Shown one piece after another: positions 1 to 5,342 of a stretch of 5,342 bases of DNA. The stretch comes from Escherichia phage Lilleen, in sequence record MK629526; one strand, 5' to 3'. Under the pieces are notes generated by a model, which did not search any database, was not told the origin of the DNA, and saw only the letters and a list, made by a program, of their open reading frames with translations. How positions within the stretch are numbered: position 1 is the stretch's first letter; each line of letters begins with the position of its first letter. The position numbers were made by a program, and so were the translations under genes.

Positions 1-1635
1 ATGTCTGTAGAACTCATCAAACCGCTCGTCGAAGCCGCTGGCATGTCGACACTTACTCAATCTCCAAACCTCCGTATCTGGAAACAGGTAAACACTCGCG
101 TAAAATTACTCGAAGAAATCCTTGCTCACTGGACAAACGGAATCCGTCGCTGCCCTGAAACCCAAGACTTCTACATGAACCCAAATTCTCAACTGGCTAC
201 TACTATTGCCTATCGTGCTCATCAAAAAGGACATAACCCAAAACTCATTCAATACCCTGACACATTTACTCTCGACGACATTATTCGCCGTAAACCAATC
301 CCTCAAACTGCCCCTGACGAACTACGCCTCTCTGATGAAATCGGTGAGGATTACCGCCTTACAGTCATCGCCATTGCTGACGAACTGCAAGAATGTTACG
401 ACGTGCTCGGACAACTTGATATTAATAACACTATAGACCACACCCCTAAAGGTAACGCCCACTGGAGTATGCTTTATGATAAACCTGTTAACACCCATTG
501 GTCACAGCTCGTATCTAAACGACCCCTTAAAGATATCCGCGCCGATTACAACTATGCAAAGGCGAAGGGTATTAAGGATGAATGCTCAAAAATGCTTGAG
601 GAATCCACCATGAAATCACGCCGTGGCTTTACCGTTCAACGATTGATGAATGCTATGCGCCAAGCCCACACTGACGGCTGGTATGTTGTATTCGACACTC
701 TTACTCTTGCCGATGACCGCATACAGGCTTTCTATGATAATCCCAATGCTCTTCGTGACTACTTCCGTGATATTGGTCGTATGGTGCTTGCTGCCGAGGG
801 TCGCTCTGCTAATGACTCACACGCCGACTGCTATCAGTATTTTTGTGTTCCAGAGTATGGCACACAGCACGGTCGTCTACATTTCCACGCAGTGCACCTT
901 ATGCGCACACTTCCTCTGGGTTCTCGTGACCCTAACTTCGGTAAGCTGGTACGCACTAATCGCCAAATAAACTCCTTGCAAAACACATGGCCCTATGGCT
1001 ATTCTATGCCCATCGCAGTCCGGTACTCCCAAGACGCATTCTCGCGCGCTGGCTGGCTCTGGCCTGTTGACTCAAAGGGTGAACCCCTTAAAGCTACCTC
1101 GTATATGGCTGTCGGCTTCTACGTCGCTAAATACGTTAATAAAAAATCTGATATTGATATGGCCGCAAAAGGCCTAGGGAATAAAGAATGGAACGCATCA
1201 CTCAAGACCAAAATATCTCTCCTACCAACAAAACTATTCAGAATCCGGATGTCCCGCAACTTCGGGATGAAGATGTTATCAATGGCGCACCTGACCGCCG
1301 AAACATTAATCCAACTGACCCAGCTGGGCTACGACTCGACCCCGTTCAACAACGTCTTGAAGCAGAACGCCAAGAAAGAGCTGAAATCGAGACTGGCAAA
1401 AGCATCTGTCGCGACCGTTTTGGCGGCGCAACCTGTAACGACCAATCTGCTAAAATTTATGCGCGATTTGACCCGAACAATCGGAGCGTCCAACCTGCAG
1501 AATTTTATCGCTTCAATGACTCAGAAATTAACACTCATGGATACTTCTGATGAGACCAAAAACTACCTTGCTGCTGCAGGAATTACTACTGCTTGCTTAC
1601 GAATTAAATCGAAGTGGACTGCTGGCGGAAAATGA
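1..1635 (+). CDS. A: Replication initiation protein A (rolling-circle HUH endonuclease)
   Basis: 544-aa ORF that I recognise as phiX174/G4 protein A: HUH-type motif 'GRLHFHAVH', twin catalytic tyrosines '[10 protein letters not shown]', conserved C-terminus '[14 protein letters not shown]'. If the window is circular, GGAGG at 5331-5335 sits 7 nt upstream of the ATG at 1 and an in-frame TAA at 5325-5327 closes the frame upstream. Stop TGA 1633-1635 overlaps the C start (ATGA). Confidence 0.9.
412..441 (+). other. Viral (+) strand origin of rolling-circle replication (A-protein nick site)
   Basis: Exact match to the conserved microvirus 30-nt origin CAACTTGATATTAATAACACTATAGACCAC as I recall it. 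The nick would fall between G418 and A419. It lies inside the gene A coding sequence, as in phiX174. Confidence 0.85.
610..1635 (+). CDS. A*: A* protein (in-frame internal initiation within gene A)
   Basis: In-frame ATG at 610 ('MKSRRGF...') preceded by GAGGA at 598-602 (7-nt spacing). Gives a 341-aa product, the same length as phiX174 A* as I recall it. Confidence 0.6.
977..1005 (+). promoter_or_regulatory. Candidate sigma70 promoter upstream of B (PB-like)
   Basis: TTGCAA (977-982), 17-nt spacer, TATTCT (1000-1005), inside gene A about 180 nt upstream of B. Weak match; position is analogous to phiX174 PB. Confidence 0.25.
1188..1550 (+). CDS. B: Internal scaffolding protein B
   Basis: 120-aa ORF nested in gene A in another frame. 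Conserved motifs 'PQLRDE', 'RFGGATC', and C-terminus 'QPAEFYRF...GYF' match phiX174 B (also 120 aa). AGGGA at 1175-1179 upstream of ATG 1188. Stop TGA 1548-1550 overlaps the K start. Confidence 0.9.
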
Positions 1636-1714
1636 AGAAATTCAATCTTGCACTAAAGAACTCGAGAGGGTCTTACTTCGCAACCTTTCGCCATCAACTA
1701 GCAATACTCTCTAA
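1550..1714 (+). CDS. K: Protein K (small non-essential membrane protein)
   Basis: Hand translation from ATG 1550 (TGATG overlap with B stop) gives 54 aa '[54 protein letters not shown]', close to phiX174 K (56 aa). Spans the A/C junction as in phiX174. Below the ORF-track length cutoff. Confidence 0.7.
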
Positions 1715-1892
1715 GGCCGATGCCCTCGACGAGGAAAAATGGCTTAACATGATGGGCGCTCTTCTTAAGGACTGGTTCCGCTACGAAGAACATTTCGTAC
1801 ATGGCAAACAATCTTTAGTTGACATATTAATCGAACGGGGGTTACTATCCCCCACACAAACAACCCGTAACAACAAAGGAAATACCAAATGA
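1632..1892 (+). CDS. C: Protein C (DNA maturation / stage II to III switch)
   Basis: ATG 1632-1634 overlaps the A stop (ATGA). 86 aa '[28 protein letters not shown]...', matching phiX174 C (86 aa). Stop TGA 1890-1892 overlaps the D start. Confidence 0.9.
1819..1848 (+). promoter_or_regulatory. Candidate sigma70 promoter PD (drives D-E-J-F-G-H)
   Basis: Perfect -35 TTGACA (1819-1824), 18-nt spacer, -10 TACTAT (1843-1848), inside the 3' end of C. Same hexamers and location as the phiX174 PD promoter as I recall it. Confidence 0.55.
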
Positions 1893-2344
1893 ACTCCAAT
1901 GAATCGGCTGTAGCCTTTCAAACTGCAATCGCCTCTATCAAAATGATTCAGGCCTCATCTGTCCTCGACCTTACCGAAGACGACTTCGAATTCTTAACTG
2001 GTGACCGTGTCTGGATTGCTACCGACCGTTCTCGCGCTCGCCGTGCTGTGGAGGCCTGCGTTTATGGCACACTGGACTTTGTCGGGTATCCTCGCTTTCC
2101 TGCTCCTGTTGAGTTTATTTCTGCTGTTATCGCTTACTACGTTCATCCGGTCAACATCCAGACCGCTTGTCTCATCATGGAAGGAGCCGAGTTTACTGAA
2201 AACATCGTCAATGGCGTTGAATCCCCAGTTAAGGCTTCCGAGCTCTTCGCTTTCGTTCTCCGTGTCCGCGCTGGCTGTAAAGACGTCCTCGAAGGCGCCG
2301 AAGACAACATCCGCGCTAAACTCCGTGCCCAAGGAATCATGTAA
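1889..2344 (+). CDS. D: External scaffolding protein D
   Basis: 151-aa ORF with very strong similarity to phiX174 D ('VYGTLDFVGYPRFPAPVEFI', 'AYYVHPVNIQTACLIMEGAEFTEN'). AAGGA at 1876-1880 upstream. ATG 1889 overlaps the C stop (ATGA). Confidence 0.93.
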   Translation: MNSNESAVAFQTAIASIKMIQASSVLDLTEDDFEFLTGDRVWIATDRSRARRAVEACVYGTLDFVGYPRFPAPVEFISAVIAYYVHPVNIQTACLIMEGAEFTENIVNGVESPVKASELFAFVLRVRAGCKDVLEGAEDNIRAKLRAQGIM

Positions 2345-2357
2345 ATATTATGGCTAA
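2064..2357 (+). CDS. E: Lysis protein E (MraY inhibitor), +1 frame inside D
   Basis: ATG 2064 preceded by GGAGG at 2050-2054. 97 aa starting 'MAHWTLSGILAFLLLLSLFLLLSLTTFIRSTSRPLVSSWK', an N-terminal transmembrane helix resembling phiX174 E ('MVRWTLWDTLAFLLLLSLLLPSLLIMFIPSTFKRPVSSWK'). The ORF track's earlier start at 2001 is a GTG. Confidence 0.75.
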   Translation: MAHWTLSGILAFLLLLSLFLLLSLTTFIRSTSRPLVSSWKEPSLLKTSSMALNPQLRLPSSSLSFSVSALAVKTSSKAPKTTSALNSVPKESCKYYG

Positions 2358-2480: not shown

Positions 2481-3806
2481 ATGTCTAATGTTCAAACTTC
2501 TGCCTCTCGTGATGCAATTGATTTATCACATCTGGTCTTCAACACTGGCGCTATTGGTCGCCTTAAAGTCGCATCATGGACCCCTGTTATCGCTGGTGAT
2601 TCTTTCCAGCTTGACGCTGTTGGTGCTTTACGCTTATCCCCTCTGCGTCGCGGCTTGGCTATTGACTCAACTGTTGATTACTTCACTTTCTATATTCCAC
2701 ACCGTCATATCTATGGCGATGCATGGATTCAATTTATGAAAACTGGCGTCGCTGCCACTTCTCTTAACCCTGTAACCACTGGCGAATACGTTGATAGCGC
2801 CTCTTATCTTGGTGTAATCCCTTCCAAAGATGGCAAGGTTCCTAAGTTCCTGCATCAAGGCTATCTCAATATTTATAATAACTACTTCAAAGCTCCTTGG
2901 ATGGCTGACCGTACTGAGGCAAACCCATCTAACTTAAACGACGACGACCGTCGTCATGGCTTCCGCTGCTGCCATCTAAAAAACATATGGTCTGCACCTC
3001 TTCCTCCTCAAACGGAAATCACTCGCGCTATGGATACTGGCGCTACTTCCATTGATATCATGGGTCTTCAAGCTGCCTACGCCCAACTTCACACTGACCA
3101 AGAACGTGACTACTTCATGCAACGTTACCGTGACGTAATCTCTTCGTTCGGTGGCAAAACTCACTATGACGCTGACAACCGTCCTCTTCTGCTTATGCGC
3201 TCTAACTTCTGGGCTTCTGGCTATGACATTGACGGTACTGATCAAACCTCATTAGGTCAATTCTCTGGTCGTGTCCAACAAACATTCCGCCACTCTGTTC
3301 CTCGCTTCTTCGTACCGGAACACGGCGTTATTATGACTCTTCAACTCGTACGCTTCCCGCCTACCTGCACTGAGGAAACTCACTACCTCGTCGGCAAAGG
3401 CGCACTAAGCTATACTGACCTTGCGGGCGACCCTACTCTTTACGGTAACTTACCGCCTCGCGAAATCGAAATGAAAACTCTCTTCCGTGGCGCTGCTGGC
3501 TCTTCTGAAAAAATCAAAATTGCCGAAGGGCAATGGTATCGCTATCATCCTTCTTACGTTGATGGTCAATATCACAACCTTCAAGGGTTCCCGTTCATCC
3601 CAAATGGTCCAACTGGCAACATGGAAAACCGTGTACTGATTGACCATAAAAAATATGACGAATGCTTCCAGTCACTTCAATTAACTCACTGGAATGCCCA
3701 GGCTAAATACAATGTCACTGTATATCGACACATCCCAACTACTCGTGATAGTTACTACTACTATCACAAAGGCCGTCACTCCCGCCGCGTTGGCTCCTAT
3801 TATTAA
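2481..3806 (+). CDS. F: Major capsid protein F (C-terminal 17 aa are out-of-frame read-through into G sequence)
   Basis: 441-aa ORF, AAGGA at 2470-2474 (6-nt spacing). Strong similarity to phiX174 F along the whole length up to '...[14 protein letters not shown]' (codon about 424). After that the reading is '[17 protein letters not shown]' instead of the expected short '...IMTS*'. Those last codons overlap nucleotides that encode G in the +1 frame. Confidence 0.9.
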   Translation: MSNVQTSASRDAIDLSHLVFNTGAIGRLKVASWTPVIAGDSFQLDAVGALRLSPLRRGLAIDSTVDYFTFYIPHRHIYGDAWIQFMKTGVAATSLNPVTTGEYVDSASYLGVIPSKDGKVPKFLHQGYLNIYNNYFKAPWMADRTEANPSNLNDDDRRHGFRCCHLKNIWSAPLPPQTEITRAMDTGATSIDIMGLQAAYAQLHTDQERDYFMQRYRDVISSFGGKTHYDADNRPLLLMRSNFWASGYDIDGTDQTSLGQFSGRVQQTFRHSVPRFFVPEHGVIMTLQLVRFPPTCTEETHYLVGKGALSYTDLAGDPTLYGNLPPREIEMKTLFRGAAGSSEKIKIAEGQWYRYHPSYVDGQYHNLQGFPFIPNGPTGNMENRVLIDHKKYDECFQSLQLTHWNAQAKYNVTVYRHIPTTRDSYYYYHKGRHSRRVGSYY

Positions 3807-4236
3807 TACGCCAACCGTTGCGCGTAACAATCTCTTTGTGAACTTAACTACTACCGCCCTAACTTCTCCGGGCGGTATCTCTGCTGTTGTCGCTATCGAC
3901 AACTCTTCTCATACCGACAATCAGGTTATCTCTATTGCTGCCTCTCTTTCTACTGCTGGCAGTCTAGTACCTGTTCTTTGTCGGTTTGAATCTGCTACTG
4001 TACCAACGGCTATCCCCGCATCTGCGGTTACTTACTATCCGTTGGAATTTAAATTATCTGCTACTGCTCTATCCGTCAAGGACTGCGCTACTGTCTCTAC
4101 TATTTCTCGCTCTGGCAATCCTGTTTATGTAGGTATTGCCCTTATTGCGAAATCATTTATCGCCGATACTGTATACGGCTCTATCTCAATTAATCAGGTT
4201 GACCAAGAAATCACAACTCTGCAACCCCTCAAATAA
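3694..4236 (+). CDS. G: Major spike protein G (canonical N-terminus, RBS and start absent; true start uncertain)
   Basis: G-like sequence runs from about 3766 ('[16 protein letters not shown]...[13 protein letters not shown]...VKDCATV...NPVYVGI...LQPLK*'), matching G4/phiX174 G from roughly residue 15-20 to the C-terminus. Upstream, the frame stays open inside F to ATG 3694 (and ATG 3712) with no convincing Shine-Dalgarno. The expected 'MFQ.FIS.HN' N-terminus is absent. Confidence 0.7.
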
Positions 4237-4246
4237 AGGAATCTCT

Positions 4247-5284
4247 ATGTTTGGTGCAATCGCTGGCGGCATCGCCTCTACTCTTGCTGGCGGTCTAATG
4301 TCCAAACTGATGGGCGGCAATAAACAAGCCGCCCCTTCAACTCCCGGACAAGGCCTCTTCGCTACCCCTGAAGCTACTATCTCTGCTGATAATGCAGGTA
4401 TTCAATCTGTTATGCAGGGACCTAACCCGCCTAGACCTGATCAGGCGGCTCCTACATTTACTGAATCTGCCGTCTCCTCACTTAAGGATGCTGGCAAAGG
4501 ACTTCTCGATGGTACTCTACAAGCTGGCGGCTCTGCTGTTCAACAAGCTCTTCTTAATAAAATTGGCCTCGGTGGCAAATCTGCTGCTGATAAAGGCAAG
4601 GATACTAAAGATTACCTTGCTTCTGCGTTCCCCGAGCTCAACCCGTGGGAACGCGCTGGCGCTGGTGCTTCCTCTGCTGGTATGGTTGACGCTGGCTTTG
4701 AAAACCAAAAACAACTAACCAAGATGCAACTTGACAACCAAGTCAAAATCGCTAAGATGCAAAACGACACTCAAAAGGATATCGCTGGTATCCAGTCTGC
4801 CACATCACGCATGAACACTAAGGACTCTGTATATGCTCAAAACGAAATGCTCCAATACAACCAAAAGGAATCTATGTCACGTGTTGGCGCTATTCTCGAA
4901 AACACAAGCCTCACCAAACAACAACAAACTTCTGAAATTATGCGCCAAATGCTTACTCAGGCTCAAACCTCAGGACAACACTTTACTAACGCTCAAATCC
5001 AAGAACTTACTCGAAAAGTCGGTGCTGATATTGATGCTGTTCGTGCTAACACTCAACGCACCAATGTAGAAACTGACCGCTCTAAACAGGAAGTCCAAAA
5101 CTCACGTTACGCATCATCACAGGTCGGTAAAACCGCCAAGGACGTATCAAATGTCATTAGTGACGCATCTTCTGGTATTGTTGATTATTTTCGTGGCGTT
5201 GATAAAGCTGTGGCTGACACTTGGAACAATTATTGGAAAGATGGTAAAGCCGACGGAGTAGGCTCCAACATGTCTCGCAAATAG
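4247..5284 (+). CDS. H: Minor spike / DNA pilot protein H
   Basis: ATG 4247 preceded by AGGA at 4237-4240. 345 aa '[11 protein letters not shown]...[22 protein letters not shown]...[26 protein letters not shown]', collinear with phiX174 H. The ORF-track start at 4136 is a TTG in the G 3' end and is not used. Confidence 0.9.
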
Positions 5285-5315: not shown

Positions 5316-5342
5316 AGCCTCCATTAACACGGAGGCTTTAAC
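5316..5342 (+). terminator. H-A intergenic hairpin (TH-like terminator; 3' arm contains the gene A Shine-Dalgarno)
   Basis: AGCCTCC (5316-5322) pairs with GGAGGCT (5331-5337) across an 8-nt loop, followed by TTTAAC and then, across the circular junction, the A start codon. phiX174 has the analogous 'GCCTCC...GGAGGCTTTTTTATG' arrangement. Confidence 0.45.

Follow-up and report, generated by a model that had tools for sequence, protein, structure and literature searches.

phiX174/G4-type start/stop junctions in the A-B-K-C-D block of a G4-like microvirus sequence

In phiX174, the junctions B-K, A-C, C-D and D-J have been named start/stop overlaps; when the overlaps were removed, the phage was viable, less fit and made less protein C, a reduction which the authors tentatively tied to the lost A/C overlap together with the changed 5′ region (10.1101/2020.06.10.143693; PMC11527146). 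The same phage has the pD promoter within codons 63-75 of C and the ribosome-binding site (RBS) of D at C codons 82-83, according to a saturation-mutagenesis preprint (10.64898/2026.07.25.740675). Bacterial genes on the same strand overlap most often by ATGA and next most often by a single shared A, two arrangements linked to coupling and reinitiation (10.64898/2026.09.10.750558). A literature search for direct assays of translational coupling in phiX174 or G4 returned only indirect evidence, namely the proteomics of decompressed genomes.

The three junctions and the genes that they join

The window, that is, the whole stretch of 5,342 nt of DNA analysed here, contains junctions of the same two motif classes (ATGA and 1-nt overlaps) as bacterial operons. 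The sequence-only reading had placed B/K, A/C and C/D overlaps in it and had considered them identical to those of phiX174. Direct reading of the sequence showed all three to be present, and the listing of open reading frames (ORFs) agreed (Table 1). The identity with phiX174 (NC_001422) was likewise borne out: there, the motifs are located at 49-53, 133-136 and 390-393, in the same frames and with equal spacing between the starts of K, C and D (82 and 257 nt). Protein C is 86 aa long in both, and the pD hexamers TTGACA/TACTAT of phiX174 lie at the same place within C. As a yardstick, phiX174 shares the motifs but is a distant reference, being assigned to a different genus (Sinsheimervirus) than the G4-like window, with only 71.3% identity over the 345-nt junction stretch, about 71-72% (~72%) overall, and a K of 56 rather than 54 aa.

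The junctions also fit the gene calls: each of the five flanking ORFs (A, B, K, C and D) matches its Pfam family, is complete and without internal stops, and has the same length as in the nearest relative, Lilleput. Homologues of A, B, K, C, D and J follow each other on one strand in the order of Bullavirinae, with Phage_GPA, Phage_B, Protein_K, Phage_C, gpD and Microvir_J all above the Pfam cut-off. The nesting is that of the Bullavirinae block, with B inside A, K extending over the A/C boundary and E beginning in D. Gene E (2064-2357) starts within D, ends 13 nt beyond the D stop and overlaps the J start, as E of G4 does; its Pfam match is under the cut-off (19.8 compared with 25 bits), and it aligns lengthwise with E of Lilleput. 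Positions 1632-1635 are read in three frames, since K crosses the A/C junction.

Table 1. Coordinates of the junctions, genes and expression signals in the window.
Feature	Position	Strand	Remarks
B/K junction	1548..1552	+	TGATG; B stop TGA 1548-1550, K start ATG 1550-1552; 1-nt overlap; T[GA]ATG in 32/32 Bullavirinae genomes
A/C junction	1632..1635	+	ATGA; C start ATG 1632-1634, A stop TGA 1633-1635; 4-nt overlap; phiX/G4 groups
C/D junction	1889..1892	+	ATGA; D start ATG 1889-1891, C stop TGA 1890-1892; 4-nt overlap; 12/32 genomes including the window
D/J junction, non-canonical	2342..2352	+	TAA, 5-nt spacer, ATG; private 6-nt insertion 2344-2349 splits TAATG
Gene A, replication initiator	1..1635	+	544 aa; Pfam Phage_GPA 2.4e-60; Lilleput A of equal length, 3 aa differences
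Gene B, internal scaffolding protein	1188..1550	+	120 aa; nested in A, other frame; Pfam Phage_B 4.8e-43; Lilleput length
Gene K	1550..1714	+	54 aa; crosses A/C junction; Pfam Protein_K 1.1e-17
Gene C, DNA maturation	1632..1892	+	86 aa; Pfam Phage_C 7e-40, alignment from residue 6; coordinates of annotated Lilleput gpC
Gene D, external scaffolding protein	1889..2344	+	151 aa; Pfam gpD 1.6e-81; protein identical to Lilleput D
Shine-Dalgarno of gene D, AAGGA	1876..1880	+	8 nt before ATG (optimal spacing); predicted -5.6 kcal/mol
Putative pD-type sigma-70 promoter	1819..1848	+	TTGACA-18 nt-TACTAT; inside C, downstream of C start

Conservation of the junctions across Bullavirinae

Whole-genome identity of the window was highest to Lilleput (97.6-97.8%), followed by Lilledu (97.0%), lillemer (96.8%), Lilleto (96.2%), MG1 (96.1%) and SECphi17 (93.4%); with about 95% or more identity to clade members taken as the criterion, sequence comparison places the window in the Lilleput clade of G4-like phages. 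Lilleput itself (MK629525) has A (1-1635), C (1632-1892) and D (1889-2344) at the coordinates of the window, with identical B/K, A/C and C/D motifs and identical D and J proteins. MG1 has GTGA at A/C where the window has ATGA.

The junctions were surveyed in 32 Bullavirinae genomes from three genera, including the window and leaving out L026, whose contig ends fall within D. Conservation of B/K and A/C, which is confounded with third-frame coding constraint since B/K lies within A, and A/C within A and K, was complete for the former (1-nt overlap in 32/32 genomes; TGATG in L014 was read by eye) and group-specific for the latter (4-nt overlap in 18/18 genomes of the phiX and G4 groups, as ATGA in the window and 16 of the 17 others and as GTGA in MG1). 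In two alpha3-like genomes, TGATG of B/K has become TAATG, whereby stop and start are both preserved. The 14 genomes of the alpha3 group have a 26-nt spacer in place of the A/C overlap. The C/D junction is labile: a 4-nt overlap is found in 12 of the 32 genomes (the Lilleput clade, to which the window belongs, PJNS002, phiX174 and ID2), and a 14-nt overlap, a 1-nt spacer or gaps of 26-43 nt are found elsewhere. G4 and ID18 (Gequatrovirus) share gene order, TGATG at B/K and ATGA at A/C with the window but differ from it at C/D, where G4 has TGA-A-ATG with its 1-nt spacer and ID18 the 14-nt overlap. The alpha3/WA13 group (Alphatrevirus) retains the 1-nt B/K overlap (TGATG or TAATG), has lost the A/C overlap to the 26-nt spacer following an 18-nt insertion, and has the 26-43-nt gaps at C/D.

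The three motifs very probably represent inherited gene junctions of a phiX174/G4-type microvirus (Bullavirinae), located in its compressed A-B-K-C-D block, the window being G4-like and of the Lilleput clade. They are textbook phiX174/G4-type junctions, inherited unchanged, and as such already known and ordinary.

Initiation of K, C and D

The proximity on which coupling depends is given at all three junctions, where the upstream stop overlaps the downstream start. Translational coupling had been proposed for the overlaps collectively, which is too strong as a blanket claim: coupling is plausible at B/K and possible at A/C, but unlikely to matter much at C/D. Predicted Shine-Dalgarno (SD) energies are -3.1 kcal/mol for K (no better than 39% of random ATGs), -4.8 for C and -5.6 for D, compared with -9.5 for A and -9.3 for E, and the predicted probability of the start region being unpaired is 0.35 for K and 0.34 for C (both poorly accessible) and 0.78 for D, although SD energy and folding accessibility are crude predictors and a weak SD may merely mean low expression.

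Because K has essentially no SD and its start is predicted to be hard to access, this gene is plausibly translated by reinitiation after B. Ribosomes finishing B would restart on the overlapping ATG, which is the most likely route to K given that it is devoid of a usable SD, and K would then be made in a small and constant proportion to B; B and K would share transcripts. C is intermediate between K and D: the SD-like GGCGGA is weak and the start poorly accessible, and at A/C some of the synthesis of C may therefore depend on termination of A/A*. However, most mRNA in this region is expected to originate from the B promoter, which lies beyond the A and A* starts (in the phiX174 record, pB transcription starts at 4899, downstream of both), so that C must also initiate independently.

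D is probably independent of C, given that an AAGGA precedes its start, that this start is very accessible by prediction and that a putative pD-type promoter lies within C. The AAGGA corresponds to C codons 82-83, the D RBS of phiX174. No other start region in the genome is predicted to be as accessible as that of D, which is in the 99th percentile of all ATGs. The pD-like site is the best promoter-like site in the window (10/12 matches), corresponds in hexamers and position to phiX174 319-348 and maps to C codons 63-73; transcription from it would be expected to start at about 1855. As this promoter follows the C start, C would be missing from many D mRNAs; D transcripts would largely begin at pD in C and never carry the C start, and D, the most abundant scaffold protein, would be made via its own AAGGA and open start region, which would make the C/D overlap mainly a packing arrangement. 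Unlike in bacterial operon coupling, two of the three junctions in the window lie inside a third reading frame, and C/D would be bypassed by a putative internal promoter.

Alternative readings and the state of the genome

It is extremely unlikely that the motifs are chance occurrences of ATGA and TGATG and that K, C or D truly start elsewhere, for example C at GTG 1614. The frequency of the motifs would permit it: ATGA occurs 48 times on both strands of the window, which is the chance level (47.3 expected), and TGATG 19 times, which is modestly above it (11.1 expected); motif enrichment was dropped as evidence. Of 36 plus-strand stop/start-overlap motifs, five lie where an upstream open frame meets a downstream ORF, with a minimum length of 50 codons required of both, and dinucleotide shuffles of the window yielded a mean of 0.37 and never reached five in 2000 trials, a test that is inflated by the long genes of the real sequence and that returned two false positives (610 and 2736, in-frame Met codons within A and F). 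The other three are the claimed junctions, and only they join two distinct Pfam-verified genes. The position of the junctions is non-random, the motifs by themselves are statistically unremarkable, and conservation is stronger evidence than the shuffle test. With regard to the starts, the ORF listing does open the C frame at an in-frame GTG at 1614, six codons upstream of the ATG at 1632; it is the less likely start, as the beginning of the Pfam alignment, the annotation of relatives and GTGA of MG1, which at the exact A/C site points to that codon as the start, all favour 1632. Furthermore, the K ORF has no earlier start, the Pfam profiles start at residues 2-6 of the called proteins, and Lilleput, ID2, G4 and phiX174 have independently been annotated with the same coordinates. 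It is less clear-cut, though still rather unlikely, that the overlaps are by-products of compaction of a capsid-limited ssDNA genome (by overprinting and by gain or loss of stops and starts) and have a translation-level role at none of the three junctions. The free drift of C/D among relatives, the complete loss of the A/C overlap in the alpha3 group, the viability of fully decompressed phiX174 and the independent promoter and RBS of D would all be expected under compaction, but the persistence of B/K in every genome of three genera, even across the change from TGA to TAA, argues against it, as do the lack of any SD proper to K and the lower fitness and reduced C of decompressed phiX174.

Beyond inheritance of the junctions, which is the preferred reading, the state of the molecule that carries them has to be considered. 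This part of the genome had been described as intact, which holds for A, B, K, C and D, all full length, but not beyond the end of D, where the D/J junction is split. All six Lilleput-clade relatives, phiX174, ID2 and G4 have atgtaATG at this site; phiX174 thereby retains a fourth overlap (TAATG) that is lost in the window, which is the sole genome of the phiX and G4 groups with a D/J spacer (TAATG in L008 was read by eye). ID18 has an 8-nt D/J overlap, and the alpha3/WA13 group a 1-nt spacer. Further downstream, a private 155-nt deletion at 3751/3752, equivalent to Lilleput 3746-3900, removes the stop and end of F, the F-G spacer and the start of G, and a third private indel, a 1-nt insertion, follows the G stop. 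Lilledu, lillemer, Lilleto, MG1 and SECphi17 have none of the three indels. The Pfam Phage_G match spans only profile positions 19-175, and H is intact. The window thus lacks the 1-nt D/J overlap of phiX174, G4, ID2 and the Lilleput clade as well as a complete set of the structural genes F, G and H. Because the G start is deleted, the genome is probably not viable as written, and "function" therefore refers to the lineage and not necessarily to the molecule in the window. The break at D/J together with the F-G deletion suggests that this molecule is defective or artificial.

Chances are even that the window does not represent a replicating natural genome: it could be an artefact of assembly or editing, be defective, or have been designed or generated, and its junctions would then be copied from a Lilleput-like template and hence uninformative on selection here. 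Consistent with this, its three private indels are absent from six close relatives and two of them hit functional junctions (D/J and F/G), the D/J insertion and F/G deletion junction sequences gave no exact match in IMG/VR, JGI metagenomes or GTDB genomes, and the record begins at the ATG of gene A, exactly as the GenBank entries of the Lilleput clade do. On the other hand, substitutions follow a natural-looking pattern (35 are private, and close relatives range from 12 to 62), and all proteins except F, G and E are full length. The Evo phage-design preprint mentions neither Lilleput nor G4-like templates, which speaks neither for nor against a generated origin. An artefactual or defective origin is compatible with the junctions being homologous to known ones. 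It is very unlikely, in turn, that the window is a real, replicating variant of the G4-like phages. In such a variant, 6 nt would have uncoupled D/J, F and G would have been merged so as to overlap newly by 113 nt, and translation of G would begin at an ATG at 3694 or 3712 within F. If this were true, B/K, A/C and C/D would be the overlaps that cannot be lost, and the genome would show, as a natural experiment, which overlaps microviruses cannot do without.

The possible defective or artificial state bears on how other findings in the window are read. For junctions inherited from the phiX174/G4-type block, the use is mainly that of quality control: the A-B-K-C-D block copies the classic overlapping-gene architecture and anchors the gene calls. 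Within this block, the junctions differ from one another: the whole subfamily has B/K, and K is the only one of the downstream genes without a ribosome-binding signal of its own; C/D changes readily in evolution and would be bypassed by a putative internal promoter.

Overlaps at B/K, A/C and C/D and the genes that they join

The window spans the complete genome of a microvirus, numbered from the ATG of gene A. Direct reading, coordinate extraction and the ORF ends place the three overlap motifs exactly where the sequence-only reading had put them, to the base (see the table). Its gene calls hold as well: the flanking ORFs match the expected Pfam families, with the matches of A, B, K, C, D and J all exceeding the curated cut-offs. 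The profile alignments start at residues 2-6 (K, C and D) or residue 14 (B), which is consistent with the proposed start codons; for the C ORF, the ORF list starts at an in-frame GTG at 1614. K also runs through 1632-1635, so that all three frames make use of this tetranucleotide.

Features of the window, with predicted start-site properties and conservation of the junctions
Feature	Position	Strand	Description	Basis	Pfam match (E)	SD pairing (kcal/mol)	P(unpaired), percentile
B/K junction	1548-1552	+	TGATG; 1-nt overlap in 32/32 genomes	direct reading, coordinate extraction			
A/C junction	1632-1635	+	ATGA; 4-nt overlap in 18/18 phiX- and G4-group genomes, window counted	direct reading, coordinate extraction			
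C/D junction	1889-1892	+	ATGA; in 12 genomes, window counted (Lilleput clade, PJNS002, phiX174, ID2)	direct reading, coordinate extraction			
A	1-1635	+	544 aa; stop TGA 1633-1635	ORF list	Phage_GPA (2.4e-60)	-9.5	0.48, 55th
B	1188-1550	+	120 aa; stop TGA 1548-1550	ORF list	Phage_B (4.8e-43)		
K	1550-1714	+	54 aa; ATG 1550-1552	ORF list	Protein_K (1.1e-17)	-3.1	0.35, 18th
C	1632-1892	+	86 aa; ATG 1632-1634, stop TGA 1890-1892	ORF list	Phage_C (7e-40)	-4.8	0.34, 17th
D	1889-2344	+	151 aa; ATG 1889-1891; AAGGA 8 nt from ATG	ORF list	gpD (1.6e-81)	-5.6	0.78, 99th
E						-9.3	0.30, 9th
J					Microvir_J (9.3e-09)		
6-nt insertion	2344-2349		AATATT/ATATTA; splits canonical D/J TAATG				
155-nt deletion	between 3751 and 3752		Lilleput 3746-3900				
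1-nt insertion	4235		extra A directly after G stop, upstream of H Shine-Dalgarno				

Escherichia phage Lilleput (MK629525, 5490 nt) is the closest relative, with 97.6% identity over 100% of the window by megablast against GenBank phages and 97.8% in the clade alignment; it is followed in megablast by Lilledu, lillemer, Lilleto, MG1 and SECphi17, and with ID2 and G4 at ∼80-82%. In the clade alignment the window carries 35 private substitutions (relatives' range, 12-62). Identity to phiX174 is ∼72% genome-wide and 71.3% over 1548-1892. By sequence comparison, the window is a G4-like phage that has the phiX174 motifs but is no variant of phiX174. The Lilleput annotation gives the same coordinates for A (1-1635), C (1632-1892) and D (1889-2344). 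In phiX174 (NC_001422), K, C and D start at 51, 133 and 390 (contexts tttctgATGAG, ggaaaATGAG and aaatcATGAG) and B, A and C end at 51, 136 and 393; junction motifs and start-to-start spacing (82 and 257 nt) are identical to those of the window, so that the stated match to phiX174 holds for the motifs. The SECphi17 record (LT960607) has a 55-nt terminal direct repeat, most likely from a circular genome over-assembled as linear.

Chance expectation and conservation across Bullavirinae

The bare motifs are unremarkable, ATGA occurring 48 times on both strands of the window (47.3 expected) and TGATG 19 times (11.1 expected); it is their position that matters. Plus-strand stop/start-overlap motifs were then required to connect two frames of 50 codons or more, an open frame upstream and an ORF downstream; 5 of 36 passed, three of them being B/K, A/C and C/D. 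Dinucleotide shuffles yielded a mean of 0.37 passing motifs, and five were reached in 0 of 2000 trials. The remaining two fall on in-frame Met codons within long genes, at 610 (A* start) and 2736 (within F). Since the real sequence holds long genes, the test is biased, and homology and conservation were therefore given more weight. The A* start ATG at 610 (341 codons) is itself part of an ATGA (610-613), and A* equals the annotated A* of ID2 and G4 in length; that a 45-aa ORF in another frame (476-613) ends at this ATGA is probably coincidence.

For conservation, 32 Bullavirinae genomes were compared: the window, GenBank genomes L001-L007 and L027-L032, and 18 of 19 IMG/VR loci found by a D-protein profile (L026 was dropped). 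At B/K, two alpha3-like genomes have TAATG in place of TGATG, altering an A codon but keeping B stop and K start. At A/C, all 14 alpha3-group genomes have, instead of the overlap, a 26-nt spacer after an 18-nt insertion. In MG1 (OR702609), where gene C is unannotated, 1632-1635 reads GTGA rather than ATGA, so that C would begin with GTG; either natural variation to a GTG start or a sequencing error would account for this. C/D is a 1-nt spacer (TGA-A-ATG) in G4 proper, a 14-nt overlap in ID18-like phages and a gap of 26-43 nt in the alpha3 group; the alpha3-like locus IMGVR_UViG_2974698926_000001 (6259 nt) has an insertion of ∼233 nt between C and D compared with the other genomes. In this comparison, evolutionary stability is unequal among the three junctions. 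The stable ones lie within a third frame (B/K inside A, A/C inside K), and their conservation is therefore partly confounded with coding constraint.

Start signals and translational coupling

Coupling had been implied for all three junctions alike. This blanket claim does not stand: coupling is probable at B/K, possible at A/C and probably of little weight at C/D. Shine-Dalgarno (SD) strength was taken as predicted pairing with the 16S anti-SD sequence, and accessibility as mean unpaired probability at positions -15 to +5 in a 140-nt context, ranked among all ATGs. B and K would be cistrons of the same transcripts, and the K start has no predicted initiation signal of its own, pairing as good as K's being found at 39% of all window ATGs; B/K is thus the most plausible candidate of the three for termination-reinitiation. 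In the phiX174 record, the A (3981) and A* (4497) starts both lie upstream of the point where pB transcription begins (4899), so much A/C-junction mRNA would be untranslated in the A frame, and C must therefore also self-initiate.

D has its own AAGGA, a start predicted to be open and a candidate promoter inside C. The top sigma-70-like site of the whole window (TTGACA-18-TACTAT, 1819-1848) lies within gene C, at codons 63-73; it shares both hexamers and their position in C with phiX174 pD (319-348). By saturation mutagenesis in phiX174, pD was located to C codons 63-75 and the D ribosome-binding site to C codons 82-83 (10.64898/2026.07.25.740675). Predicted transcripts from 1819-1848 begin ∼30 nt upstream of the D ATG, without the C start, and D translation on them would therefore not be coupled to C. 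In phiX174, each procapsid requires 240 copies of D, and C is a minor protein; this difference in need, supported by the product notes, would also argue against dependence of D on C. On the predicted signals, the C/D overlap is mainly packing. Elsewhere, the J-F spacer holds at 2445-2462 a G+C-rich hairpin and then a run of T, terminator-like and at the position of phiX174 T_J, and a hairpin at 5320-5338, the 3′ end of the window, carries in its 3′ arm the gene A GGAGG Shine-Dalgarno across the circular junction, as described for the pA/T_H/RBS arrangement of phiX174.

For these phiX174-type junctions the literature gave indirect experimental evidence, and no direct coupling assay was found. 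Wright et al name four start/stop overlaps in phiX174 (B-K, A-C, C-D and D-J); their decompressed phiX174 was viable, with lower fitness and reduced C, a reduction that they put down tentatively to the missing A/C overlap and an altered 5′ region (10.1101/2020.06.10.143693). In modelling, promoters and terminators alone left altered A*, B and C levels unexplained, pointing to combined changes in transcription and translation initiation (PMC11527146). Among same-strand gene overlaps in bacteria, ATGA and the single shared base are the most frequent types, and they have been linked to coupling and reinitiation (10.64898/2026.09.10.750558).

Integrity of the molecule

Genes A, B, K, C and D match those of Lilleput in length with 0-3 aa differences each, D being identical. 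The region had been called intact, which holds for 1-2344 and fails directly beyond, where D/J is split. Three indels distinguish the window from Lilleput, all private against six clade members. The 6-nt insertion turns D/J atgTAATGg into atgTAAatattATGg, shifts the J ATG to 2350 (14 nt from the J AAGGA) and lengthens E by two codons (97 versus 95 aa); the window alone has a D/J spacer among 18 phiX- and G4-group genomes. The 155-nt deletion took out the last codons and stop of F, the entire F-G intergenic hairpin region and the ribosome-binding site, ATG and first 13 codons of G. With the F frame now extending to 3806 (441 aa) and the G frame open from 3694, the two frames overlap by 113 nt. 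Anti-SD pairing found no SD before the G-frame ATGs at 3694 and 3712, the Pfam Phage_G match spans profile positions 19-175 only, and the deletion ends share no microhomology. The insertion at 4235 is probably harmless. The private D/J and F/G junction sequences were absent from IMG/VR, JGI metagenome contigs and GTDB genomes.

The contrast drawn by the sequence-only reading, between an intact A-D block and a disrupted F-G region, is right in view of the deletion; it missed that D/J, the fourth classical overlap, is disrupted too. These two private changes, at D/J and at F-G, point to a molecule that is probably defective or artificial.

The overlaps themselves are confirmed and their interpretation is partly supported, in that gene calls and phiX174 homology hold. 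Of most use besides are the separate account of each junction and what was learned about the molecule itself; the three junctions are the long-known, already described overlapping-gene architecture of the phiX174/G4 type, inherited in a Lilleput-clade genome.
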